From Elsinoe ampelina (taxonomy: Eukaryota): a stretch of 23,504 nt of DNA. How positions within the stretch are numbered: position 1 is the first letter of the stretch; every line of letters begins with the position of its first letter. Of this stretch, positions 65 through 23,504 are shown piece by piece. The stretch covers positions 825,516 to 849,019 of the forward strand of contig ML992511.1 in the NCBI GenBank assembly GCA_010093995.1, given 5' to 3'. The position numbers and the translations under genes are program-made. Under the pieces are notes generated by a model. It did no database searches, was not told the origin of the DNA, and saw only the letters and a list, made by a program, of their open reading frames with translations.

Positions 65-3000
65 CTAAGCACCCACCCCCACCGCCCCCCTTCCGAGCCC
101 CAGCAAACTCTCCGCCGCCTCCCTCCTCCTCATCTCCTCCCTGACCTTCCTCTTCCTCGCCCCCATCCCCCGCTCCACATACCTCGTTTCCCTCCCCTCA
201 TCCACAAACTCGATGCGTTGAATAATGAAACTCATCCCATCGTGGTCGCCGCCCCAAGTACGGGACTTGAGGTGGTGCAGGACGCTGCCTTCGTATTTAC
301 TCAAGGGGGGCAGGATGACGACTGTGATGTGCATGTCTCTGTCTGCAGGGATGAAGACGGGGTGGACAGGCTTGGTGTCGAGTTTGTCGGGTGTTTCGTT
401 CGAGTGAGGGGTGTCGCCATTCGTCTTGTCACCGTTTGTGCCGTTCATTTCGGTCTGGGCTTCGAGGGCGCGGAGGTCGTCGCTATAGGCACCAAAGTCG
501 CCTTTGATCCAGCCGCTGTGGACGGCTGCGGCGACGACGTCAGAGTCGTCGGTGTAGATCTCTGTGCCCCAAAGAGCGCGGCGGTCGCAGATCTCTTCGA
601 GGCCGCCAGCGACGGGAACAGATTCGGCGTAAGATGACGCTAGATAGGACCGAGGGACGCGGATGGTGAAGCTGCCGTTCTCCTTTTCTGGGAAGTAAGG
701 TATGGGTCCAGGTGCAGCGGCGAAGAAACGCTTCATCTCCTCCAGAGGACGTGGTTTGTTTGATGAGAGTGTCAGATTCGGAGAATAGAGAGCAGATCCG
801 AGGTGGACTCGCGGCTTGGTGAGAGCCATGTCAAATACTTCTTGAGACTTGACGTGGATCTTAGGAGCAGGTACTGGAGCTGCAGGCTTCGTATGGTGAT
901 GGTGATGAGTGGTATGTGGTGGATGAGCGTGGTGATGGTGGTGGTGATGCGGCGGAATAACCGGTGCAGCAGCCGCGGTTGATGGGAAACGAAGAGTGTT
1001 GAAGCCTCCACGAGCAGCAACTCCATCCTCGGGCGTATGGTGATGATGGTGGTGCGCAGGGTGATGTGGATGCTGATGATGATGGTGGTGATGGGCTGTC
1101 TTGGCTCGCTTGCCTCTGTGCTGACCCGTCGGAGTGCTTCTGCCATTGATACTATCTCCATCTTCCCGCGTGGCGTCGCTTCGATCTGCGCGATGCAATA
1201 CTGATGTACCACCGACGACGTTCTCGTGTTCACCAATGTCGCCATTCCGCTCGTGATCACCGTCGGCAAATCTTGACGGACTTAGGCGCGAAGGTGTGAG
1301 GTTTCCTGACGCTGAGAATGGCCCATTAGGCGTGCCAGCTCCTCCAACACCACTGCCTAGACCGGAGAACATTCGGCCAAACTCATACTTGATGGATGGT
1401 GTGCCGCCCGGCCCAGTTAGTCGTGGTTGCGCTCCTTGGACAGCTTGTGGAAGAGGCGAAGCACGTCCTCCTTTGCGATTCAGCTCGGGACTGACGGTCA
1501 AGAAAGCTCTCGGTATGGGATGGCCATCGTCATCACGACGTCCGCGTGGCTGAGATGTCGTCTCGAGACGATCGCGATCTTGAGGCGCATAGTGTCGGAA
1601 TCTCGACTCGAAGCCGTGGTCGCCTGCGCTCGGTGGTGAGCTTGCTCCTGCCGGTACAGATCGAGGCTCGAGTGGACGGCGGTCGTCATACTCGGGTCTC
1701 CGCTCAATCGGCCCATAAGTATGTCTCGCGTAAGGATCTCGATCATCTCTATGTGGTGGTGGTGGGTAAGGTGCGTGATTCGGCGGTTGTTGTGTTTCGA
1801 CCTGCCGGCCGTGGTCAATCATGGGTCTCATGTGTCTTTCATCAATGTCGTAACGATGCTGAGGCTCAGCATGATGTGGTGGATACTCGCGGAATCCTCC
1901 TGGTACTCTGTGTTCTGGTTGTGCTGCTGCCCTCCATGCTTCGATCCTCTCTTGTACTGATGACGCGGGCTGACTGTTGGGTCGAGGTGGAGCGCCACCT
2001 CCGTTGATGTGAGGCGATGGTCCGACGACAGAAGTCGGGGAAGATTGGTAGGGTCTGAAGCTCGGTGGACCAGCTGGTGGCGGGGGTGGTCCTCCACCAT
2101 ACGCACGATTTGAGAACCATCTCTCTCTTTCGTCGCGTGGCTCAGGGTCTGCATATGCTAGACCACGTGGACTGAGTGGTCGTGGTGCTCTTCCATAATC
2201 TTCTCTCATGCTTGTTGACCTTGCTCTTTTGGGGGATAATTGGGGTGTAGATTTTATTGTAGGCGAGTTCTGGGTTGTGACTGCCTTTGGTGATCGGTCT
2301 CCAGCTCGATCGTTGCCGATGAGAGAGCCAATCGACATGCCACCTCCCGGTCGTGAGCCAAAAGGCGGGAGGTCGCGCGCGCCAGGGTATGGCGATTGCG
2401 AAGGAGGTCCTCGAGGATGATGGTTGGGGAAGGATGGTGTCGCCGCACTTGAGGGTGATGGAGGAGGCATATTTCGGGACGCGAACGGCGGAGGGGGTGG
2501 TGGTTCGAGCGGACCTGTGACATTGTCAGCCGATGGCGTATGTTCTGCGCTTGCTTTTACTGACCTCCGTATCTAGGTGGACTGCCCGCTCCTATCGACC
2601 GTCTTCGAGCGTCCTCATATGCATTGGGATGTCGGCTGGGATCAAACTGTGGAGGAGGTTGATGATGCGGCGGATGCGACAAGGATGGTGGGAGTTGAGG
2701 ACCTGCGCGAAATGATCGATTAGTTTCTTCTTCGCTGGAATTGATGGACTGCAGGAGAGCTTTTGCAGAGCTTCGCGGTTGCGGAAACTGCCGAGAGTAT
2801 TTTGAATGCGACTCATGCGATCGACGAGCAGCCACATCCTGTTTCTGCACTTTCTGCAATTCCACCAGTCTTCGCCAAAGGTCTATCTGCTCCATCATAT
2901 TCTCGTTGACTTACCAGGTTGTGCGGCCCATGCTCTTTCCCCGACCATGGGCGTCAGTGGAGCCCCGACTTGACCTCCATAGCTGTCCTTTCTCCGATGC

Positions 3001-8310: not shown

Positions 8311-9093
8311 CTACGATTCTGGCCCGGAACGTTCAATAGTGAATAGCACCTCGCGATCAGTCTCGACAGAGACCTCGTCAGCCTTGATATGATTGCTTGT
8401 GCTGACCTGACCACCCAGCTCAGTGGGCCAATCGACGACATCCCATTCGAAACCTTCGATCGTGATTGTTGCCGGCCCGAAGACAGGCAATATCCCAGCG
8501 TTCTCCGTGATCCGGCCTTCGCGAACCGGTACAGCTATCGTAGTCTTTCCTTTGGGAAGGATGAATGAGATACTGCTCTCTGAGAAGAGCCAGATAGTGA
8601 TATTTGGATGCTGCCTCTGTTGGCGGTAGAGTTCGGAAAGGAGTCCGATACCTTGGTCAACTCTTCCGGAGAGAGACCCTAGTACGATGATATTGGTCAG
8701 GGAGGGCACCGAGGCTATGACTCTGCCTATCGATTTTTCAAAATCTGTGTGATATTGATCGCCATCCTTGGTGACTGGCACATTATGACGCTCGTAGTAT
8801 GCTCGGACATCGTCTCGCAAAGAGTCCAAGTCGCCATGTATCTCGGTTGGGAGGTATGTTTCCAAGAGAGACTTCTGCTGACTGCTCAGAATGCTATAGA
8901 CTCGATTGGCGCCGCCATCTGCGCAGACTCGGTATGAAGTATTTGGCCAGATCTGCTTCACCAGGTCCGCATGGGATATGGGTGAGTTTAGCACGACCAG
9001 ACCTGCATGCTTCTCCGTAGGGCCTTCAATGCTGACGCTGGCGCTCCTCAAGAAATCGAGGGGCCTCAAGATGCCTCGACTTTGCTCTGCCAT
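8311..9093 (-). CDS. THI80: Thiamine pyrophosphokinase
   Basis: Intronless 260-aa ORF with CADGGANR, GDLDSL, DQYHTDFEK, GSLSGRVDQ and GFEWDV...GGQVSTSN motifs. Confidence 0.93.
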   Translation of the reverse strand: MAEQSRGILRPLDFLRSASVSIEGPTEKHAGLVVLNSPISHADLVKQIWPNTSYRVCADGGANRVYSILSSQQKSLLETYLPTEIHGDLDSLRDDVRAYYERHNVPVTKDGDQYHTDFEKSIGRVIASVPSLTNIIVLGSLSGRVDQGIGLLSELYRQQRQHPNITIWLFSESSISFILPKGKTTIAVPVREGRITENAGILPVFGPATITIEGFEWDVVDWPTELGGQVSTSNHIKADEVSVETDREVLFTIERSGPES

Positions 9094-9308
9094 ATTTGTG
9101 GACCTTTGGAGGTGCAGATGTTGAGTGTAGATCTACATTTGATGATGTTGCGCACCGCCACATGTGGCTTGTATCCCGATCGATCATCGTGGCTGAACCT
9201 TCGAAAGATTTCCTGAGGTCACTGCTAATCGTTTTCTTTTCTACATCTTCACGACATCACCGAATGTTAGACACCAACACCCTATAGCATCCGAGCGCTT
9301 GATTCAGC

Positions 9309-10561: not shown

Positions 10562-11362
10562 ATGTTACAGCGGATCGCCCTCCGAGCTGCTCGATCAGCG
10601 CGTGTCGCAAAGACAGATCTGCCAACTCTATTCGCTACACACACATACAGCCCTGTTCTTTCTGCAGTACCTCAATCGCGCGCATTTACCGTCTCAAGAT
10701 CACGCCCTGCCGAAGCGGAAGCTGCCAAATCGGATGCAAAGGAGGAAGCGACCAAGGATATAAGCGCAGAGAAGCAGAATGCCACGGCTAAGGAATTAGA
10801 ACAAAAGACCAAGGAGGTGCTCGATGTTACAGTAAGAGCTCGCTCATGGACAGTCTACTCGTGCTAACCAGCGCACAGGACAAGTGGAAGAGGTCGATAG
10901 CAGACTTCCGAAACCTTCAGGAGCAGACCCGACGAGAAGTAACAGCGGCCAAGGAGTTTGCTATCCAGCGATTTGCTAAGGACTTGATTGAGAGCATCGA
11001 CAATCTGGACCGAGCACTTGACACTGTGCCCAAGGAGAAGTTGACGGATGAGAACAAAGACTTGAAGGCGCTGCATGACGGCTTGCGAATGACAGAGACT
11101 ATTCTCATGTCGACCCTGAAGAAGCATGGCCTGGAGAGATTTGACCCTAGCGAGGCTGGCGAGGTGTTCAATCCGAATAAGCACGAGGCTACCTTCATGG
11201 TGCCACAAGCAGAGAAGGCAGACAACACTTGCTTCCATACGCAGCAAAAGGGGTTCACTCTGAACGGCAGAGTTCTGAGGGTAAGTGCTCAGCGGTATCG
11301 TACCACGACTGGCATGCTAACAAGTACAGGCTGCTAAGGTCGGCGTCGTCAAGAACTCATAG
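10562..11362 (+). CDS. MGE1: Mitochondrial GrpE nucleotide exchange factor; exons 10562-10831, 10879-11280, 11330-11362; 234 aa
   Basis: Presequence, ADFRNLQEQTRRE, FAKDLIESIDNLDRAL, FNPNKHEA and KGFTLNGRVLRAAKVGVVK. Two canonical introns (10832-10878, 11281-11329). Confidence 0.95.
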
Positions 11363-12044
11363 ATGAGTTGTAATCTGGCTTTCGAGACACGGAAATGTTT
11401 GCGCATGGCATGGCGTTCAACACACGGCGCGATTGACATCCCCCCTCACTGGCTCTTATACGACCAGCAGTGTATGATATATGGCAAAAGTGTATGTATA
11501 GTTCGGAAATACGGTAGACGGAGACAAAAGATACAGAGATGGAAAAATGTCACAGTTCCCTCTAGAAGGACCTGTCACGAAGAATTGCTAAGCCTCGTTT
11601 GTTCCACTACCACGTCCTCGGTACCATGACTACCACCTAGTTCTTAGACGGAGAAATACTATTCATACCAGTGGATCTACCTGTCGCGTGCCCGCATTCT
11701 GTTTTCCTGGTCGGTTTTGCGGCGGTCGATCGGCAGAAACCGGGGACCCTCGGCTCGTGGGAAGAAAGCTTGGACGTCAGGCACATGCGTTCATCAACTT
11801 CTCCGCTCCCCGCGATCTGCTGCAATTGAAGCTTAGACTTGTGACTCCATCCATCCGCACTCGACCTCTACTCCTGGATGTCACAGCAATTCCCGGACGC
11901 CTCCATCAAGTTCACATGTTCAGGGCACATCCTTCTCGAGACTTGCGGCGGTAACAATCGTCCACAGCCGCATTGAAACTACCACACCAACCGAGGCCGA
12001 GGGGCCTGTAACACAAACACAAACGGCACTCCCCAACCGCAGTC

Positions 12045-13505
12045 ATGTCATGGAAGAAGACGGAGAAGCTCATGAGCACTATATCTCATTATGCACAATT
12101 CCCAGCTACCGGAGTGTCCCTCCGCCAGATGGTGCAGTTCGGCCAACGACCCAGTGTCGGCACGCTATACAGGGCGAGTAGCTTTCTCTCGGAGGAATTG
12201 CCCATCAGACTCGCGCATCGAGTGCAAGAGCTTGGGGATCTGCCAGATGGGCTGAACGAGATGCCGTCGATACAAAAGGTGCAGGATTGGTATGCGCAGT
12301 CATTCGAGGTAAGTCAAGGGATATGAGTCAAACATGGAGCTGCGCTTGTCAATCATGGACCTGTGCTTGTGAATCATGGAGCTGTGTTTTCCAACCATGT
12401 GGTTGTGCTAATCATTGACCAGGAAATCACCGAATTACAAAAGCCAAGCCTGTCAGCAGAGATCCGAGAACGACTGCTACGACCGAGCAGTGGAAAGGGG
12501 ACAGTAGCCTTTTCAGGGTCCAACAACCCCTCGGTCCAGAAAGGGCAGTACAGGTCACAACCGACGTCGAATGGAAACGGAGGGGCGAAGGGCTCAGGAA
12601 GCAAAAGATACTTCAGTGCAGGCGAAGATACGGGAGAATGGCCACCCGAGCTGGATGATTATAATGGTCGCTTCGCGCGGACACTCGACAAGATCAAGCG
12701 AAGACATGACGGAGTCGTCACCACCGTTGCCCAAGGTATTCTGGAGTACAAACGGAAACGACAAAGGATGCAGATCGATGCTACGATTCAGCAATTCCTG
12801 GATCGTTTCTACATGAGCAGAATAGGCATTCGCATGTTAATAGGGCAACATATTGCGTTGACTGATCAGCGCTCAAACTCGGACCCCTCTTTCGTTGGGA
12901 TAATTTGCACCAAAACCAATGTCCAGGAGCTTGCGCAAGAGGCTATCGAGAATGCTCGCTTCGTATGCGAGGACCACTACGGACTCTTTTCCGCGCCCAA
13001 TGTACAGTTGGTCTGCCCGCCAGATGTGTCTTTCCCGTATGTACCGGGGCATTTGAGTCACATGCTCTTTGAGATCCTAAAGAACTCGCTACGCGCCGTT
13101 GTCGAAAGACACGGCGAAGACCAGGAGGAATTTCCGCTTACCAAGGTCATCGTCGCTGAAGGCAAGGAGGATATCACAATTAAGATCTCAGACGAAGGAG
13201 GGGGTATACCAAGGAGTGCTATCCCTCTTGTATGGACCTACATGTACACTACTGTCGACCAAACACCAAACCTGGATCCGGACTTCAACCAGAATGACTT
13301 CAAAGCACCTATGGCAGGATTCGGATACGGCTTGCCCATCTCGAGGCTCTATGCAAGGTACTTTGGTGGTGATCTCAAGCTGATCAGTATGGAAGGGTAG
13401 GTGATTTTTTTGGTCGCTATATACGTGCTGACAATGTTCAGTTATGGCACGGATGTATATCTCCATCTCAACAGACTATCATCATCATCAGAACCGCTAC
13501 AGTGA
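12045..13505 (+). CDS. Mitochondrial pyruvate dehydrogenase kinase / BCKD kinase family protein; exons 12045-12308, 12423-13396, 13442-13505; 433 aa
   Basis: EELPIRLAHRV, FLDRFYMSRIGIRMLIGQH, N-box EILKNSLRA, G1 ISDEGGG, G2 AGFGYGLPISRLYARYFGGDL and terminal GYGTDVYLHL..SSEPLQ. Introns 12309-12422 and 13397-13441. Confidence 0.93.
12333..12412 (+). repeat. 21-bp minisatellite (three full units plus one degenerate unit) inside kinase intron 1
   Basis: catggagctgcgcttgtcaat / catggacctgtgcttgtgaat / catggagctgtgttttccaac / catgtggttgtgctaat. Confidence 0.8.
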
Positions 13506-13808
13506 CAACGACCCGTCATGAGGGAAGAGTGGGCGTCCCCGGGATTGACGCGCGGAGTTAACAGCCAGAGGAGTGGTGGCGGTGGCAAGGCCAAGACGGA
13601 TTTTGACAGGATCCAGAACCTGACCATGGCAACAAGAGCCATGAGGCTGAAGCCAATCAAGAGAGACTTCAGTGACAGAGAGGTCAGTGAGCGAAGACAA
13701 GTGGGAGACATGGAGGAGATGATGAGCCGAGGGGGAAGCAAAGGTTCACCAGGGACCGATGGCAACAGTCCATGGTGGAAGAACGTTGGCATGGATGAAG
13801 GGCTGTAA
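13506..13808 (+). other. Candidate readthrough extension of the kinase (100 open codons in frame after its TGA)
   Basis: TGA 13503-13505 is followed in frame by CAA CGA CCC GTC ATG (13518) and stays open to TAA at 13806-13808. Confidence 0.4.
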
Positions 13809-14044
13809 AAACATATGCATACTATATGAATGGCAGGATATGAGTACAGCACATAGTATGTCACCATATCACCATGTCACCAATTTGGATTTTTGTGACA
13901 CCCCTTACGGTGAGCCAGATGTTGCAGGTGAGCCGAGGCCCCGCATTTCCCCAGCTTTCCGCATATCGTCGGCATTGACCAAACATGAGCTCCACCATGG
14001 AAACATTTCTCTTCCTCTCATCTGCACTTCAAAGCCTTTCCAAT

Positions 14045-15251
14045 ATGAAGGCCGCGATCCCTCGGGTACTACCACGTACATTGTCGCCGCGTCTACGAAC
14101 ACTTCAACGCCAACGCCGATGCTTGTCGACTCCACGACCCACGACTGACTTTGTCCGGGTCATTGACGTCGGACCTAGAGATGGTCTCCAGAATGAGAAG
14201 AAAAGCATACCGGTCGAAACCAAGCTTGAATTGATTCGAAAGCTGGCGGCAGCTGGACTTCAGACCATTGAGGCAGGCAGCTTTGTCAGCCCGAAATGGA
14301 CACCACAGGTATGTCTTTCAAAGCCTCCGCGGCGGATCTGGCTGATCCAGTCAGATGGCAGCTTCGGACGAGATCATGAAGTCGATTCTTAAGTCACCGC
14401 CCTCTTCGAGCTCCTCAGTGACATACCAATGGCTGCTACCGAATATGCGTGGTCTCGAAACCTTCAATTCCATCTACCTTCCTTCACAAGCCAACTCCCA
14501 ACCTGCTCCACCTAACGACTATGGTCCTTCGCTCAACACCTCCTCCGCTGATCCCAACGCCATGCCATCGAACCCTAGTCCGACAACTCCACAATCTGCC
14601 TCTCCTCCTCCATCACATGAGATCTCCATCTTCCTCGCCGCGACCGAGTCCTTCTCACGGAAAAACACCAATTGCTCAATCGCAGAATCACTCGAGCGTT
14701 TCGCCCCACTCATGGCTTCAGCACGGGATAACTCGATACCAGTAAGAGCATACATATCTGTGGCACTCGGTTGTCCCTTCGAAGGACCAGATGTGTCGCC
14801 TGCAAAAGTGGCGGAGCTGGCAGCGACATTATTAGAGATGGGGGCGGACGAGATTGCAGTAGCAGACACAACAGGGATGGGCACCGCGCCGAGGACAAGG
14901 GAGCTTCTACGGACATTAGAGAAGGCTGGCATCCGACCCGGTGATTTGGCGCTACACTTTCACGATACTTTTGGCCAGAGTCTCACGAATGTGCTGGTAG
15001 GATTGGAGCATGGCGTACGGACATTCGACGGGGCAGTTGGTGGTCTCGGTGGGTGTCCGTACAGTCCTGGTGCGACTGGGAACATCAGCACGGAGGACTT
15101 GGTGTACACGCTGCATAGCTTAGGGGCGGAGACTGGCGTGGATCTGGAGGAGCTGAGTCAGGTGGGCGAGTGGATTACCGGGGAGGTTGGAAAGGTGAAC
15201 GAGAGTCGAGCAGGAAAGGGAACGCTGGGAAGATTAAGGGCGAGTCATTAG
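14045..15251 (+). CDS. HMGCL: Hydroxymethylglutaryl-CoA lyase, mitochondrial; exons 14045-14308, 14355-15251; ~386 aa (in-frame upstream ATGs at 13985 and 13997)
   Basis: DVGPRDGLQNE, IEAGSFVSPKWTPQMA, ADTTGMG, HFHDTFGQ and GGLGGCPYSPGATGNISTEDL. Intron 14309-14354 (GTATGT..GCTGAT..CAG). Arg-rich presequence after the ATG at 14045. Confidence 0.93.
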
Positions 15252-15679
15252 TGGAACCTGTCATGGCGACTATCAAAAATTGATGTACATAAATGTTGGG
15301 CGAAGGTTATGGATGAAATGTGCTCCGGTCAGTCGACTGTTTGATACCAATCTTAGTTCGAGAGTTTGCTAACGTGTTCCAATGCTACTGGACTGTAGAG
15401 ACAGACCATCGACCAACATTACAGATCACGTGCAGCGTCACATGTGTCAACCGAGGCATAAGCTGGAGCGCCAAGAAGACCCTGAGTCAGTTCATCCCAA
15501 GGTTGAACTGAACACTATCTTACCATTTTACTAATCCATGATCAAATTAGATAATTATTGTCTTAATCTGCTGCTATTAAGGAGTTCTTTTGATTTAGTT
15601 ATCTTTTAGTATACTAGGTTAAGTATTTATGTAGTTATAATCTACCTTAGTTTAGTAGATTAGGCAGTAATTAATTCTA

Positions 15680-16108
15680 GGGTGGTTGAGTGGGTAATTA
15701 CTATACTCTAAAGAGTATAGTAATTACAACGTGACTTTTCGTGAAATTTTCGTGTTTTTTGATATTTTAACGTGCATTAGTAAGCGTATTTTACTAATAA
15801 AGATATTTTGTCTATACTATCAAAAATTCTGCATTTTTTAGTACTATTTTTGCTTATGTAATCTTAGATCCTGATTTTTAGTAGTGATTTTAAATTTCTT
15901 TCTTCTTCTAAAAATCAGGATCTAGGATTACGTAAGCGAAAGTAGTACCAAAAAATGTAGATTTTTTTATAGTATAGAAAAAATACTTTAGATTATAAAA
16001 GAAGCTTACTAATACACGTAAAAACATCAAAAAACACGAAAATTTCACGAAAAGTTACATTATAATTACTATACTCTAAGAGTATAGTAATTACCCACTC
16101 GACCACCC
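15680..16108. mobile_element. Foldback / MITE-like non-autonomous DNA element with ~200-bp inverted arms
   Basis: Ends are GGGTGGTTGAGTGGGTAATTAC and GTAATTACCCACTCGACCACCC. Arms 15680-15881 and 15908-16108 are reverse complements around a 26-nt spacer. TA flanks both ends. No coding capacity. Confidence 0.85.
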
Positions 16109-16290
16109 TAATTAATTTAATTCTATTTCCTCCCCTATACAAGTTAACAGTTATAAGCCCGGTATAACTACCCCTATATAAGTATATTACTTAGTTGCTT
16201 TTCTACTCTATTTATTAGTTAATTCTCTATTATTTTGCTTTTTAAGTATTAGAATCTATTAAGAACTGCCTTAACTATAACTATAGAATT

Positions 16291-16493
16291 TGTTAAGAAT
16301 ATAGCTCTCTCTAGATAATTAGGCTATGAAGTTATATAACCTTAAGTTATGTAATGCTAAGGCCTAGGGATTTATAGCTGTTCTTTCTTCTAGTAGATAG
16401 ACTTCTTTTAATTAACTAACTCGTCTATTACCTAACTAGTGTACGATTAGTTCTATATAATATTTCACCTCTAAACGTGCCTTCTACTTAATA
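16291..16493 (+). repeat. 5' LTR of the nested Copia element
   Basis: TGTTAAG...CTTAATA (terminal CA RIPed to TA). By manual alignment 192/203 identical to 21450-21652. Confidence 0.95.
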
Positions 16494-19400
16494 GGTTATA
16501 AGCCTAGAGCTATAGTATAAGTATAGGATTGTATATACCGTAGTTAAGTATCTACGTTATTAAAATTAGGCTAGATTCTATTAGTATTCTCCTCCGTTTC
16601 CTCTCTATTATCTTAATCCTAGACAGATTAGTAGAGGTAGTATAAAGCGTAAAAGACTAGTTACTTAGTGTATTAAGTAGGACATATTAAGATATCTACT
16701 ATAGATTTATTTCTATAATTATATAATAGCTACTATTTATTAGCTATAAATAACTAAATAACATTTGTTTTATTACTATTTTCTCTCTTAAGATTAAGCA
16801 CCTATTAATCTTATTAACAATTATCTAGTTAAGACTAGTATAGAGATCTTAACACCTAGAAGAATTAACTTAAAGGTTATTAACTTCCGGATCCTAACCT
16901 TTATCTATTTATTTATAAAATTCTCTTCTACTCTAGAATATATCTTTAGCTATAGAAGATAATAACACCTAATTAAGGCAGCTAGTGCCTATACTCTCTA
17001 AAGACAACTATAAGAAGTAGTTCTAATAAATAAAGCTCTAGCTTATATTAAAGAAGGTATTATAGACTCTTACTTCCCGTACTAAACTATTAGTAATAAC
17101 TCTAGGGTTATTATTAACTTCCTTATTTAACTCTTAATATTCTCCTCTATTAGTAGAGAAGAATAGTACTACCCTTTACTAGATCTATAGATATATCTCT
17201 AAGAGAGATTAAGAGATAATTTAGAAATAGTAGTAGGCTAAACTAGCTTAGGAGAAGCTAAAGAGCAAGTATATAAAGTAGATAGGTATATAAGTAAGAC
17301 AACTTTAGAAAGAGTTTATAACATATACTATAGGTAATAATATAACTATCTTAGATACCTAGTTATACCTAACTATGTTAGGAAGGAGAATTAATAGATC
17401 TTTAGAGATTAAGTAATACTTCTTACTAATAATAAGAATTTAAAGACTACTTAGTACTCTTTTAGCTTTATAGTTAACTATAAGAGATGCCTTAGATACT
17501 TAACTATACCTTAGTATAGATAAGATCTATAATATTCTTAAAGAAAAGAAAGTATAAAAGGGAGAAGGGGAATCTACTATATTTATAAGAGGTAGACTAT
17601 AACAAAGAACTAGTAGGAGCTTAAACTATATATATATCTTATATAAGGAACCTAGATATTCTATGTTAAGGTATCCTTATCTTTAATAAGCTAAGAAGCA
17701 TATCTAGCTATTCTATAGGGTTACTAAAAGGAGTAGCTCTATAAGGAGGTAGTTACCTAAGCGCTAGGAACTACTTAAACTTATAAGATAGCTTACTAAG
17801 AGAATAGACTCTCTTAAAGTAGCTAAATTAAGAAGGAAAGGCAAAGCCTATCTAGCTACTAAGGGAGGTTTATTATTAATATCTCTATCTCTACTACTAG
17901 AAGTTCTATCTAGAGATAAAGAGCTTAAAACTACAAGTTCTATATTAAAGATTTAAGGTAAGCTTCTATATTATTAGTAGATACTTAACTCTAGAGTATC
18001 TAACTATATAATAGATAAGCTAACTCTCTTTAGGGGCCTATTAAGCAAGATTTGCACTTAATAGATCTAGGTTAGGGGAGGTTACATTTAGTTATAGTTA
18101 ATAGAAACTACAATTATTAAGACTAAGAAGAGAGATAAGATAAAAATATAAGCTTTCTATATACCTAATCTTAGTGTTAATTTAGTCTTCTATTATAAGC
18201 TATATATAGATTTAGGCGTTTCTAGAGTTCTTAATTTAAATTCTTTTCTTGTCCTTAATTAGTAGAAGCAACTACTACTTAAAGCTAGAATTTGAGGGGG
18301 GGTATATATTATCTAATTCCTCTTTAAGTAATTAGCTAATTAAAAGCCGCATTCTAGATCTAAGCCCGGCTTAATTCTAGATCTAGCTAATTAAGATTTA
18401 GCATTCCTTACTACCTAGCTTATAATTATATTATAGACTAAGTATATATATCTAACCTAGGATAAGTAACAAGAGAATCTTATTAACTTAGGACCTAATA
18501 ACTCTAAGATAGAGTATTAGCTCTAGCATAGGAGATTTACTTACCTTAGAATTAAGAAGCTTAGGGATCTTTATAAAGTTATAACTCTTAAGAAACCTAT
18601 TAACCTAAACTATAATCTATCTATTCTATATAAGGTCTATTCCCTTATAAAGATAAGAAATAGAAGAGGTAAAACCTTATAAAGAAGACCTAAGGTTCTT
18701 TAGCTTATCTATATAAATATCTATAGTCCTATTAAAGTAAGTAGGGAAGGATTTAGATACTTTCTTAAGCTTATAGATAGCTACTTAAGGATAATATAGA
18801 TTAGACTACTTAAGATAAGAGACAAAGCTCTATAAAGGCTTATTAAGTAAAAGCTAAGAGTTAAGAAGGAAAGTAATACTAAGGTTAAGGTTACTAGATT
18901 AGATAATACTAGTAAACTTAATAAGATCCTAAAGTAGTAAAAGCGCTAAGAAGATATCTATTATATAACTACTAAGCTATATAATTTAATTTAGAATAGA
19001 CTAGTAGAGAAAGGTATCTAAACCTTAGAGAATAGCATAAGAGCAATACTTAAGGACTTAAAGATGCTAAATAAGTTCTAGCCTAAAGTAGTTTAGGTAG
19101 ATATATATCTAAGGAATAGGACAGTAACTAGACCTATAATTAATAATAAGCAAGTTATACCTATTAAGGCCTATATAGGTATTAAGCTATTAGTTAATTA
19201 TATTAGAGTCTAGGGCTATAAGGTATATACTTATATAAACCTAAAGTCCCTTCCTATATATAGAAGAAAAGACAAGCTTATAGATAGAAGGAGAGTAAGA
19301 GTATTTCTTAGCTATATAGATAGATCTAATAGGATATATAAGATATAGGCACCTAATAGGAAGGCAGTAATTATATTACTAAATGTTAAATTCTCTAAGT

Positions 19401-21449
19401 TTAAAAAAGGTAGTAATATTAATCTTAGTATTAGAATTAATACTATAAGTAATTAAGCACTAGTTAGGAGACTAGTTAGTAGACCAACTTAGATTTAGAC
19501 TAAGGTTAGATCTAAAATAGACTAACTAAATTAGCCTATTTAGAATAAAGTACCTATAGGGAGAATCTTCTTATATATTAAGATCCTAAGAGTTAACCCT
19601 ATTAATCTTATAGATTTCTAACGTAGAGAAGAGCTAATAGTTTAATCTTTACTAACTAACTATATAAGTTAATTACTTAAGAGATTAAGAGATAATAACT
19701 CTAATAATAAAGGCCCTAAAGCTAAGCACTATAGAGCTTTTATTGCTAAGTACATTAATTAGTAAGATAAGGTTAATAAGATTACTATAATAGCTTCTAT
19801 TAAGTAATATGTTCTAATCCTAAGGGACTACTATAAAGCTATTACTAATCTAGTATAGGGAAGCAAATAGTAGAAAGTAATTAATATAGAGCTTAATACT
19901 CTATACTTAAATAATATATAGGAAGAGGTTATTCCTCTAAAGGGATCTAACTTAGTAATATCTAAATAAGTCTTTAATATTAAGTATAATATAGATAGCT
20001 CTATTAAAAAGTTTAAGGCTAGACTAGTTACTAGAGGCTTCTTATAGAAGTATAGCATTAACTATAAAGACATATTTATACTAATAGTTAGAGTAGATAT
20101 ACTTAGGCTATTCTTCGCTATTATTTATATACATAACCTTAAGTATCACTAGGTAGATATTAATAACGCCTTTATAGAGTCTTTTCTTTATAAAAGGATC
20201 TATATAAGGCTACTACCTAGACTAAAGGTTAGTCCTAGATTTGCCTTCTAGATTCTAAGGAGCTTATATAGACTTAAGTAAGCTACTAGAGACTAGAACT
20301 AGCACTATATCTCTAAGCTCCTAAAGCTAGGCTTTACTTAGAGCAAAGTAGATCTCTATCTTCTTATATACTATAATAAGAAGATTATTCTTTTAGTTTA
20401 TATTAATAATATACTATTTATAACATAAAGCAAGAAGAATATCTAGTAGTTTAAGTAAGAACTTAGTAAGATTTTCAAGATTAAAGATCTTAGTAAGGTT
20501 AATAAAGTTCTTAGGGTTAAGGTTATAAAAGATAGACAATAAGGCACCTTAAGACTTAATTAAACCTACTATATAGATAATATGCTATAGAGGCTTAATA
20601 TAACCTTTAATAAGGTTACTCTAATAAAGTAGCTAATAGATAATAAGCTCCCTTAAAGAGCTTAGGAAAATAATATAAGGTTTAGTAGGACTAAATATTT
20701 ATATACTATTAGAAGCTAAATATACCTCGGTACTCTAATAAGGCTAGATACTACCTTTGCCTTAGAAAGGCTAAGTTAGTTTATAGCAGATCTAATAGAC
20801 AGTTATACTATTAAGATAAAGAGAATATTAAGATATATTAGATTAACTAAAGATCTTAGTATTATATTTAGGAGGAATAGAGGTAAGACTCTTAAGGGAT
20901 ACTCTAATTTAGATTATGTCTTAGATAAGTTAGATAAGGTTTCTATCCTTAGATATGTCTTTATACTTATAGGTAGTCCTATTAGCTAGATAAGTAAGAA
21001 GTAGAAGTCTATTTTAACCTCTACTATAGAGGCTAAATATATAGTAATATACTCTTATATAAAAAGATTATAGTTCCTGTCTTAGTTACTAAGAGACATA
21101 GGCTGTTATAGGATAGTTAAGTAATTACTATAGAGGCTAACTATAAAGGAATCTTAGAAAGTAATAATAAGATTACCCTTTACTACTAGGATTAATAGTA
21201 ATAACCGAGTAGCTCTTTTACTTATAAAAGAGCTATATACTTATAAAAGAGTAAAGTATATTAATGTCGCTTACTACTATATTAGGAGGCTATAGAGGGA
21301 CTAGAGGATTTAAGTAGAGTTTATAAGGATAGTAGACATAGTAGCTAATAGGTTAACTAAGCTATTATAAGGTTAAATCTTTATAAGGTTTATGAAGTAA
21401 CTTAGCTTATTATTAACCTAATAGCTTATCTATAGGAGCTAAGTAGAAG

Positions 21450-21652
21450 TGTTAAGAATATAACCCTCTCTAGATAATTAGGCTATAAAGTTATATAACC
21501 TTAAGTTATATAATGCTAAGGCCTAGAGATTTATAGCTGTTCTTTCTTCTAGTAGATAGACTCCTTTTAATTAACTAACTCGTCTATTACCTAACTAGTA
21601 TACGATTAGTTCTATATAATATTCCACCCCTAAACGTGCCTTCTGCTTAACA
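21450..21652 (+). repeat. 3' LTR of the nested Copia element
   Basis: TGTTAAG...CTTAACA, preceded by a purine-rich tract and followed by the GAATT TSD. Confidence 0.95.
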
Positions 21653-23504
21653 GAATTTAGGTATTAATAAGGAGATAAATAACTATAGATACTAACACCT
21701 TAATAGCTAGAACACCTATTATTCTTACTATATTAGCTAAATAGGCTAGCTAGCTATATATTATTAAGATAAGAGCATTAAACACTAAGATATAGAACCT
21801 TATTAATCCCTAGAAGACTATTAAACTAGAAGGGCTCTCTAAGCCTTAAAGGCTAGAGGTAGCAAATACTAACTTCTTAGCACTCTTCTAGATATATAAG
21901 GAGGAATAAGTATAGTATAATAAATAGCTTAAGGCCTTAGTAGATCTTACAAGCCTTATTTAGTTATTAATTGTACTATATGTTCTTACTATTATCTAAC
22001 TAGAGGAGGATCCTTATCCCTAGGCTATCCTTAGGGCATTAAAGAATAGATTTACTCTATCTAATATAGCTATTTAGCTTAAGGTTAAAGTACTTTAAAG
22101 GAAGTAGCTATCTAGTTCTTCCTTATAAAACATAGACTATTAGCTTTAGTAATAGAAAGAGGTTATAGATAAGGCTAGGAACTATAATCTACTAGAAGCT
22201 TAAGGCTTAAGACTATAAAGAGACTTCTTACTCTCTATCTTAAAAACTAAACTAGCATTTACTAATAAATACCTTATTAATCTAGATTTACTAACTCTAC
22301 TAACTATACTTAAACTAATTACTAAGTTTAGATAGTTTTACAAAATCTATAAGCTATATAGCACTATAAAGGCTAGTAAGGGAGCTATAGCCTTCCCTAT
22401 AGCTACTAAGAATATTCTTTATAAGAAACCTAGTCCCCCGAGAGAGCCTAAATATATATACTAAGGCAAGCATAAGTAGATTAAGTACTATTACTTAAAT
22501 AAGTATCTAAGGCTAGAAGAATAGATACTAAACTAGTAGACTATAAAGGAGGTCAAACAAAGGCTAAATAATAAGACTCTTAAAGAGAGAATTAAGGCTT
22601 CTATTACTAAGAAAGTATAACATTAGAAGGGGTTAACTCTACTAGTATTAATTAATATAGCTATTACTATTAAATTACACTTAGTATTTATCTTAGCTAC
22701 TACTAACATCTTAAGCTTATAGATACTAGATTCTAGAGCAACTAATTACATCTATAATTACACTATAAAGGACAGATATAAGGTTACTAGAATTATAAAA
22801 CCTTATAAGAAGCTATTCTATAGTAATACCTTACTTAGTATTAAGAGTTAGAGAACTATTAATATTATAGCTCTTTATAAAGAAAAGCTTATAACTATCT
22901 ATCTTATAAAAGTAGCTTATATACTATTAATTATAACTAATCTAGTTAGCCTTAGGAGGTTTATTAATAGTAGAGTCTACTAGAATACTTAAACTATAGA
23001 GATTAGCTATAAAGAAAGAGTACTCTTCTTAGTTATACTAAAGCATAACTAATATATCCTTAAGAATAACTCTAAAGTTCCTAATGTTACTACTATAGTA
23101 TTAAGGGATAATAATAATTGTCTACTATTAGCATTTACTATAGTTACTATAAGGACTAATTAATCTTAGTATAAAGTTATAGGCTATCTAAGCCTAGAGT
23201 CTATTAATTACCTTCTAACTACTATAGTTAGTAGTAAACTAACTCTAACTAAGCCTAGTTTAGCTTAACTAATTTATCTTAGGTCTCTATATTAGACTTG
23301 TAAGCTATTAAATACTTAGTAGATTATATTAAGAAGCCCTAACAATAAACTTGCTATATTAAAGCTATTTAAGAGAACTACCTTTAATATTATTATTAAC
23401 AGATTTACTAGCTATAATAAGGCAAGATATATAAGCTACTTTGCTTATAGGACTACTAACTATTAACTAGTTACTACCTATACTTATAGATATAAGATTA
23501 ATAA

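Follow-up and report, generated by a model that had tools for sequence, protein, structure and literature searches.

Probable readthrough of a conserved stop codon into a conserved C-terminal tail of pyruvate dehydrogenase kinase in Elsinoe ampelina and related fungi

The passage from glycolysis to respiration is gated by pyruvate dehydrogenase, which pyruvate dehydrogenase kinase (PDK) turns off. In Elsinoe ampelina the gene for this mitochondrial kinase ends at a TGA codon, past which the kinase frame stays open for another 100 codons. The question raised by this locus is how those codons are used: whether ribosomes pass the stop and append them to the kinase, whether they encode a separate protein, whether the stop is removed in the RNA, or whether the open frame is fortuitous. 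The gene lies on the plus strand of contig ML992511.1, within a stretch of 23,504 nucleotides (nt), hereafter the window, in whose coordinates all positions are given. The parts of the gene, and of the frame that continues beyond it, are as follows.

12045-12308, plus strand: PDK coding exon 1, 88 codons, N-terminus MSWKK; its end is set by the spliced joint 12306->12421 (cut +2), present in three runs.
12423-13396, plus strand: PDK coding exon 2, the kinase core, with Pfam domains BCDHK_Adom3 (3.9e-28) and HATPase_c (1.6e-09).
13442-13502, plus strand: PDK coding exon 3, C-terminus ...YGTDVYLHLNRLSSSSEPLQ (SSSSEPLQ).
13503-13505, plus strand: putative leaky stop TGA at the end of the PDK frame, with the same letters in the transcript contigs.
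13506-13511, plus strand: hexanucleotide CAACGA, of the readthrough-promoting type, matching CARNBA.
13506-13805, plus strand: 100-codon extension QRPVMREEW...PWWKNVGMDEGL, in frame and open to a second stop.
13806-13808, plus strand: second stop TAA, the end of the predicted extended isoform.
13809-13883, plus strand: 3' untranslated region (UTR) of the extended frame, with the poly(A) site near 13883.

Exon 2 encodes the two domains of the mitochondrial PDK/BCKDK kinase family (BCDHK_Adom3 and the GHKL-type HATPase_c), and an orthologue from one of the related loci described below (L005) has PDK3, PDK2, PDK4, and PDK1 as its best matches among solved structures (~1e-61 to 1e-66). The kinase C-terminus carries the peptide GTDVY[LM]HLNRLSSS.EPLQ, which is found in the window and in 73 related loci. 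The two introns of the gene, of 114 nt and 45 nt (13397-13441), have GT..AG ends, and both are removed in the contigs of three runs. An earlier interpretation made from the letters of the window (the sequence-only reading) had proposed readthrough of the TGA, and its description of the frame was correct in coordinates and in peptide: the PDK frame is open past the TGA for exactly 100 codons (13506-13805), up to the TAA at 13806-13808, and a product translated through the stop would have 534 amino acids (aa), namely 433 + 1 + 100. That reading had also put the chance of 100 stop-free codons at roughly 1% under uniform base use. Under the composition of the tail it is 1.2%, both by formula and in 20,000 shuffles, and under the composition of the window it is 0.26%. 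The tail is poor in T (13.9% T) and stop codons are thereby expected less often; the other two sense frames of the tail region hold seven (+1) and five (+2) stops.

For the extension to be translated by readthrough, it has to be part of the PDK messenger. The contigs of three runs from three studies (X1, X2, and X6), none catalogued as RNA, lack both PDK introns, with their GT..AG ends, and also the first intron of the next gene; these contigs are therefore transcript assemblies. They cover 11853-13883 (X1), 12036-13860 (X2), and 11858-13834 (X6), with zero base differences from the window and zero extra joints, so that the TGA at 13503-13505 is unaltered, and in X1 position 13883 is followed by eight A (AAAAAAAA). 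Polyadenylation upstream of 13808, which the sequence-only reading had named as a reason to abandon readthrough, was looked for in these contigs and was not found; the site lies near 13883, ~75 nt past the TAA. The contigs are spliced and continuous, and the TGA and the whole tail are thus within the PDK mRNA. Eight further intron-less contigs of ~2-3 kb from other sources (seven distinct sequences, as L028 duplicates L026) contain the whole PDK open reading frame (ORF) with its stop and the tail, and continue for 166-346 nt beyond it. A single RNA run compared as raw reads (X21) placed 0 reads on the stretch and thus does not bear on the question.

The tail also has relatives as a protein. 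Of 1.84 billion cluster representatives searched by phmmer with the 100 tail residues, 79 match at E <=1e-3, seven of them at E <=1e-10; all 79 are short (44-180 aa), and many span the tail from Met-5 to its last residue. A profile search with the tail family gave 334 proteins. The named relatives are all annotated as "hypothetical protein" of Dothideomycetes, apart from some fragment labels of the Joint Genome Institute (JGI), and come from Elsinoe batatas, E. australis, Teratosphaeria, Oleoguttula, Dothistroma, Hortaea, Aureobasidium, Friedmanniomyces, Pseudocercospora, and Eremomyces; the protein of E. batatas is 90-92% identical to the tail in the window. Pfam assigned no family to the tail or to the antisense ORF, and ESM Atlas returned no usable match for the tail. 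Five blocks are conserved along the tail family.

13506-13532, plus strand: block 1, Q[RL]PV(M)R[DE]EW, with Q1 and P3 invariant and V4 and R6 at least 90% conserved; it contains the ATG at 13518-13520.
13542-13553, plus strand: block 2, (Q)GLTR / SQGLTR, from the tail alignments.
13620-13652, plus strand: block 3, LTMA.RAMRLK, with L48 and K49 invariant and A45 and M46 at least 90% conserved.
13677-13709, plus strand: block 4, REVSERRQVGD / REVSERRQVGDAE, with S61, R63, Q65, V66, and D68 invariant in 52 tails.
13770-13805, plus strand: C-terminal block 5, PWWKNVGMDEGL, family form PWWKNVGMEEG[LM], with W90, W91, and E98 invariant and V94, M96, and G99 at least 90% conserved.

Across the family the tails end in EEG[LMVI] or DEGL. 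In one locus (L080:35-230) the tail is without the PWWKNVGMEEG block, and in another (L027:926-1288), as in the 180-aa proteins P0022, P0153, and P0158, the sequence continues beyond ...PWWKNVGMGEFFP... and has a different C-terminus.

The genomic context of the tail was assessed in 80 metagenome loci (59 distinct sequences) that were retrieved with the tail family alone; the junction with the kinase played no part in the search, and a common form fused to the kinase without a stop would therefore have turned up. PDK exon 2 lies directly upstream on the same strand in 71 of the 80 loci, and the other nine have too little upstream DNA. All 71 have the tail and the PDK stop in one frame, and in 69 that stop is the sole interruption from the kinase to the C-terminus of the tail (the exceptions are L077 and L079). 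The junction is reached by 75 loci, 73 of them complete and two cut there (L033 and L071), and the remaining five start within the tail. Every one of these 75 has a stop at the junction, and none has a sense codon.

The tails in these loci have the features of a coding sequence. Among the 59 distinct sequences, 57 tails are open, with lengths of 77-141 codons, a range that requires many indels, all of which preserve the frame. After the stop, the ratio of nonsynonymous to synonymous substitution rates (dN/dS, Nei-Gojobori) stays under 1 in every one of 908 pairs; its medians are 0.06 (dS 0.05-0.3, n=15), 0.16 (n=28), 0.38 (n=293), and 0.25 (n=572) in successive bins of dS. Both frame preservation and dN/dS <1 beyond the stop had been put forward by the sequence-only reading as expectations of readthrough, and both are borne out. 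Of the 57 open tails, 0, 1, 4, 22, and 0 are free of stops in the five other frames, respectively. An antisense gene on the minus-strand ORF at 13442-13876 was considered and rejected, as its frame is open in only 22 of the 57. On these comparisons, the tail is a real coding sequence.

For the stop itself and the bases that follow it, selection is seen in the nucleotides. At the junction, the 59 distinct sequences have TGA (32), TAG (25), or TAA (2) and no sense codon; mutations at this codon have thus exchanged one stop for another. The following hexanucleotide matches CARNBA in 58 of the 59, as the sequence-only reading had found for CAACGA in the window: it is CAACGA in 29 sequences, CAATTA in 16, CAACTA in 5, CAGCGA in 5, CAATCA in 2, CAACCA in 1, and CAACAA in 1. 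The last is the only hexamer outside CARNBA and belongs to L077, whose tail is broken. Taken together, stop and hexamer read TGACAACGA (25), TAGCAATTA (16), TAGCAACTA (5), or TGACAGCGA (5), with the rarer combinations TAACAACGA (2), TAGCAACGA (2), TGACAATCA (2), TAGCAACCA (1), and TAGCAACAA (1). Third positions in the two codons after the stop have entropies of 0.42 and 0.00 bits, vs 0.7-1.9 bits in the 19 codons before it, and in the second codon after the stop the final A is invariant while the encoded residue varies (R/L/S/Q/P). Immediately 5' of the stop, 41 of the 59 sequences have AA. UAG-CAR-YYA is described as the tobacco mosaic virus (TMV) readthrough signal, active on UGA and UAA as well (PMC3542737), CARNBA as a context that boosts readthrough in yeast (PMC4132726), and an AA dinucleotide 5' of the stop as favoring yeast readthrough (bioRxiv 10.1101/2022.12.06.519325). 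No conserved RNA structure was found 3' of the stop (median z -0.55 against mononucleotide shuffles, with 3 of 59 below -2). In the window (13503-13521), the TGAC made up of the stop and the next base can pair with the GTCA of the conserved GTC-ATG to form a 4-bp hairpin with an 8-nt loop; this pairing is possible only in TGA-type loci, and because TAG-type loci cannot form it, the hairpin is probably not part of the signal. Across many related fungi, selection acts on the stop and its context as well as on the frame and the protein sequence of the tail.

The best reading of these observations is programmed stop-codon readthrough of type I (CARYYA/CARNBA), with the hexanucleotide as the only signal, and we regard it as likely. 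Four features of type I readthrough were found at this locus: a 3' ORF conserved as coding sequence, a conserved stop, the hexanucleotide, and an mRNA that extends over the whole extension. Under programmed readthrough, most ribosomes would finish the 433-aa PDK at the UGA at 13503, and CAA CGA would weaken termination such that a fraction of ribosomes would insert a near-cognate aminoacyl-tRNA. These ribosomes would translate 100 more codons to the UAA at 13806, to yield a 534-aa kinase. The extension is predicted to be a mostly disordered tail with five short conserved blocks, and may, as a guess, serve as a C-terminal tail like that of the animal PDKs, placed after the same ...LSS.S. boundary. 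We infer that ribosomes pass the TGA at 13503-13505 at some rate, and that the tailed kinase would work differently from the short form. Structure prediction was of little help here: AlphaFold2 gave a mean predicted local distance difference test (pLDDT) score of 46.5 for the through-stop protein of L026, with the tail below 50, which is too poor to interpret, and prediction of a complex between kinase and tail gave a score of 0.03, without a verdict.

Readthrough of this kind has counterparts in viruses and fungi, each of which the PDK locus resembles in part. The likeness to the TMV replicase (type I, UAG CAR YYA) is in the six-base signal, with the identical TAG-CAA-TTA in 16 of the 59 PDK sequences and TAG-CAA-CTA in five more, and with no conserved downstream RNA structure in the PDK loci; the differences are that PDK is a cellular, nuclear fungal gene, that all three stops are used, and that CAACGA in the window has a purine at position 5 and so fits the yeast CARNBA but not the strict CARYYA. 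With the yeast genes that carry CARNBA (PDE2 and others), the likeness is that TGA-CAA-CGA in the window and 58 of the 59 sequences match their consensus. Namy et al. are reported to have set out that consensus in 2001. Like PDE2, PDK is a regulatory enzyme, whose C-terminus would be altered. The PDK extension differs in being long (77-141 codons) and conserved as protein across many related fungi. Freitag in 2012 and Stiebler in 2014 reportedly described cryptic peroxisomal targeting by readthrough in fungi, with a short UGA CU context. There too an enzyme of fungal metabolism is lengthened at its C-terminus by readthrough of its stop, but the PDK tail has CAR-NBA instead of UGA-CU and is of ~100 aa instead of about a dozen, and it lacks a peroxisomal targeting signal of type 1 (PTS1). 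A PTS1 tripeptide ([SAC][KRH][LM]-like) is absent from the end of the tail in the window (EGL, as the sequence-only reading had observed) and from the family consensus (MEEG[LMVI]), and the extension is thus not the known fungal readthrough-to-peroxisome device.

The animal kinases PDK1-4 offer a comparison of another sort. The fungal stop lies 3-4 residues past LSSS.E, where the animal PDKs enter their own C-terminal tail (...ALS.ES.ERLPV.NK.AW...), which functions in docking to the lipoyl domain and carries the DW motif. In a profile built from 14 through-stop translations and compared with solved PDK structures, 11 of 15 PDK rows stay aligned beyond the stop column, for 5-15 positions at low posterior probability (for example, '...seplq-x-qrpvmrde.w' against 'ESF---ERLPVFNKSAW' of PDK3), and none of the five BCKDK rows reaches the stop. 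This suggests that the fungal stop stands where animal PDKs continue into their C-terminal tail, although the fungal tail is 2-3 times longer and has other motifs.

Several observations weigh against readthrough into an appended kinase tail. The comparison loci are metagenome contigs without taxonomic assignment, many of them from close relatives. Two of the 59 tails have a second in-frame TAA (L077:1097-1400 and L079:504-800, at tail codons 21 and 32); the EVSERRQVGD and WWK blocks beyond it remain in frame in both loci, and this TAA could be an error of sequencing or itself leaky, or the tail could be decaying in one lineage. The 12-nt spacer from the stop to the ATG at 13518 never carries an indel, so that the shared frame of kinase and tail is not independent of the conserved spacer. 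Assembled contigs lose rare variants; minor spliced or edited forms could escape them, and levels are not readable from them. With the profile of the tail by itself, solved structures gave no PDK at E <=10, and the similarity to the animal tail thus rests on ~9 weakly aligned residues; the sole match of that profile, a nickel ABC substrate-binding protein (E 0.32), was taken as chance. Finally, the ATG located 12 nt past the stop is kept in 50 of the 59 distinct sequences, seven of its nine replacements are near-cognate starts, and annotations of Elsinoe, Teratosphaeria, Dothistroma, Hortaea, Aureobasidium, and others list the tail as a free-standing hypothetical protein.

The retained ATG, its near-cognate replacements, and these annotations, together with the uniformly short cluster representatives, accord with a tail that is made as a separate protein of ~96 aa, unjoined to the kinase and started at its own ATG (13518) on an internal transcript, by termination-reinitiation, or by leaky scanning. 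The ATG is, however, missing in nine of the 59 sequences (ACG in 4, CTG in 2, and AGG, AAT, and ACT in one each, of which AAT and ACT occur in two lineages), and in these nine the conserved blocks RDEW and GLT precede the first Met of the tail, which in five of them comes only at residue 36-60. A start at the ATG also leaves unexplained why the second codon after the stop, which varies in residue, keeps the NBA pattern; conservation also covers the four codons that precede the ATG, with invariant Q and P and at least 90% V, and these codons bear the readthrough motif. Moreover, the transcript contigs contain a single continuous mRNA, the gap from stop to ATG is just 12 nt, and to our knowledge reinitiation is not expected after an ORF of 433 codons, which we count against a separate start. 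We therefore hold a separate protein to be an improbable account of the tail as a whole, although a free tail protein might still exist as an additional route where the ATG is present.

Loss of the stop in the RNA has a precedent in another fungal kinase: in Fusarium graminearum, according to PMC13123824, stage-specific adenosine-to-inosine (A-to-I) editing removes the stop of the kinase DBF2. At the PDK locus the corresponding change would be from UAG or UGA to UGG, or else a splice would skip exon 3 together with the stop, as in the gene model of P0093 (Pyrenochaeta sp., 473 aa), in which the end of exon 2 is spliced straight into the middle of the tail and exon 3 is lost. The likeness to DBF2, a Sordariomycetes gene, is that of a kinase extended past an overridden stop. 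The PDK contigs of three runs show no edited base in the TGA and no added joint, though rare forms could hide in contigs; the TAA stops (two of 59) would require two edits; and editing does not account for the conserved CARNBA hexamer. The hexamer and the use of TGA and TAA suit ribosomal readthrough better. As for splicing, the P0093 model removes the conserved YGTDVYLHLNRL segment, and the stop and the tail persist in two genomic contigs (L072 and L075) where exons 2 and 3 are not separated by an intron. We consider removal of the stop in the RNA very unlikely.

That the extension is a frame without function, open by chance within a 3' UTR rich in purines, or a product of a recent nonsense mutation or an assembly error, has a negligible probability: its T-poor composition makes stops fewer, and the antisense frame is also open in the window, but the chance of an open frame is 1.2% under the local composition, and the idea is refuted by the significant protein relatives of the tail (79 clusters), the conservation of the stop (in all 75 loci, as TGA, TAG, or TAA) and of its context, and dN/dS <1 in 908 of 908 pairs.

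Other features of the window lie on either side of the PDK gene. The next gene downstream (14036-15251, plus strand) encodes an HMG-CoA-lyase-like protein (Pfam HMGL-like, 2.9e-28) and contains an intron of 46 nt near 14306-14351; the transcript contigs of this gene start at 14036-14050, ~150 nt past the PDK poly(A) site. Upstream are ORFs for GrpE (10792-11337, plus strand, 2.1e-37), thiamin pyrophosphokinase (8311-9132, minus strand, 1.7e-28 and 9.1e-14), and an Rxt3-domain protein (65-2572, minus strand, 7e-35). Over the last 8 kb of the window (15500-23504), the G+C content falls to 0.27-0.29, vs 0.49-0.58 elsewhere, and there is no ORF of at least 170 aa; this part looks like an AT-rich isochore, perhaps of repeats altered by repeat-induced point mutation.

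Existing annotations treat the tail in three ways: it is missed, it is listed as a separate "hypothetical protein", or it is part of a wrong fused model without exon 3, as in P0093. Seven JGI fragments (P0089, P0091, P0092, P0099, P0126, P0163, and P0168) are tail ORFs that carry the label 'pyruvate dehydrogenase kinase 2/3/4'. For Dothideomycetes, a class with many plant pathogens, the finding puts right an error that recurs in annotations. A full-text literature search, whose coverage left out most subscription journals, found no paper on PDK readthrough.

If readthrough is correct, the few cellular readthrough genes of fungi would be joined by that of a mitochondrial regulatory kinase whose extension is long, conserved, and marked by motifs, a cellular gene that employs the hexanucleotide signal of TMV, and the tail would offer a handle on a new layer of pyruvate dehydrogenase regulation. 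A further possibility, which we offer as speculative and rather unlikely, is that the stop marks the exact ancestral border where the kinase core gave way to the C-terminal tail of PDK, and that two kinases, tail-less and tailed, form a translational rheostat on central carbon metabolism. What would then distinguish the two kinases is how they dock to the E2 lipoyl domain, or how they regulate themselves through REVSERRQVGD and PWWKNVGMEEG. Such a rheostat may be sensitive to the condition of the termination machinery, and the efficiency of termination at one codon, kept across Dothideomycetes, would set the phosphorylation of pyruvate dehydrogenase.

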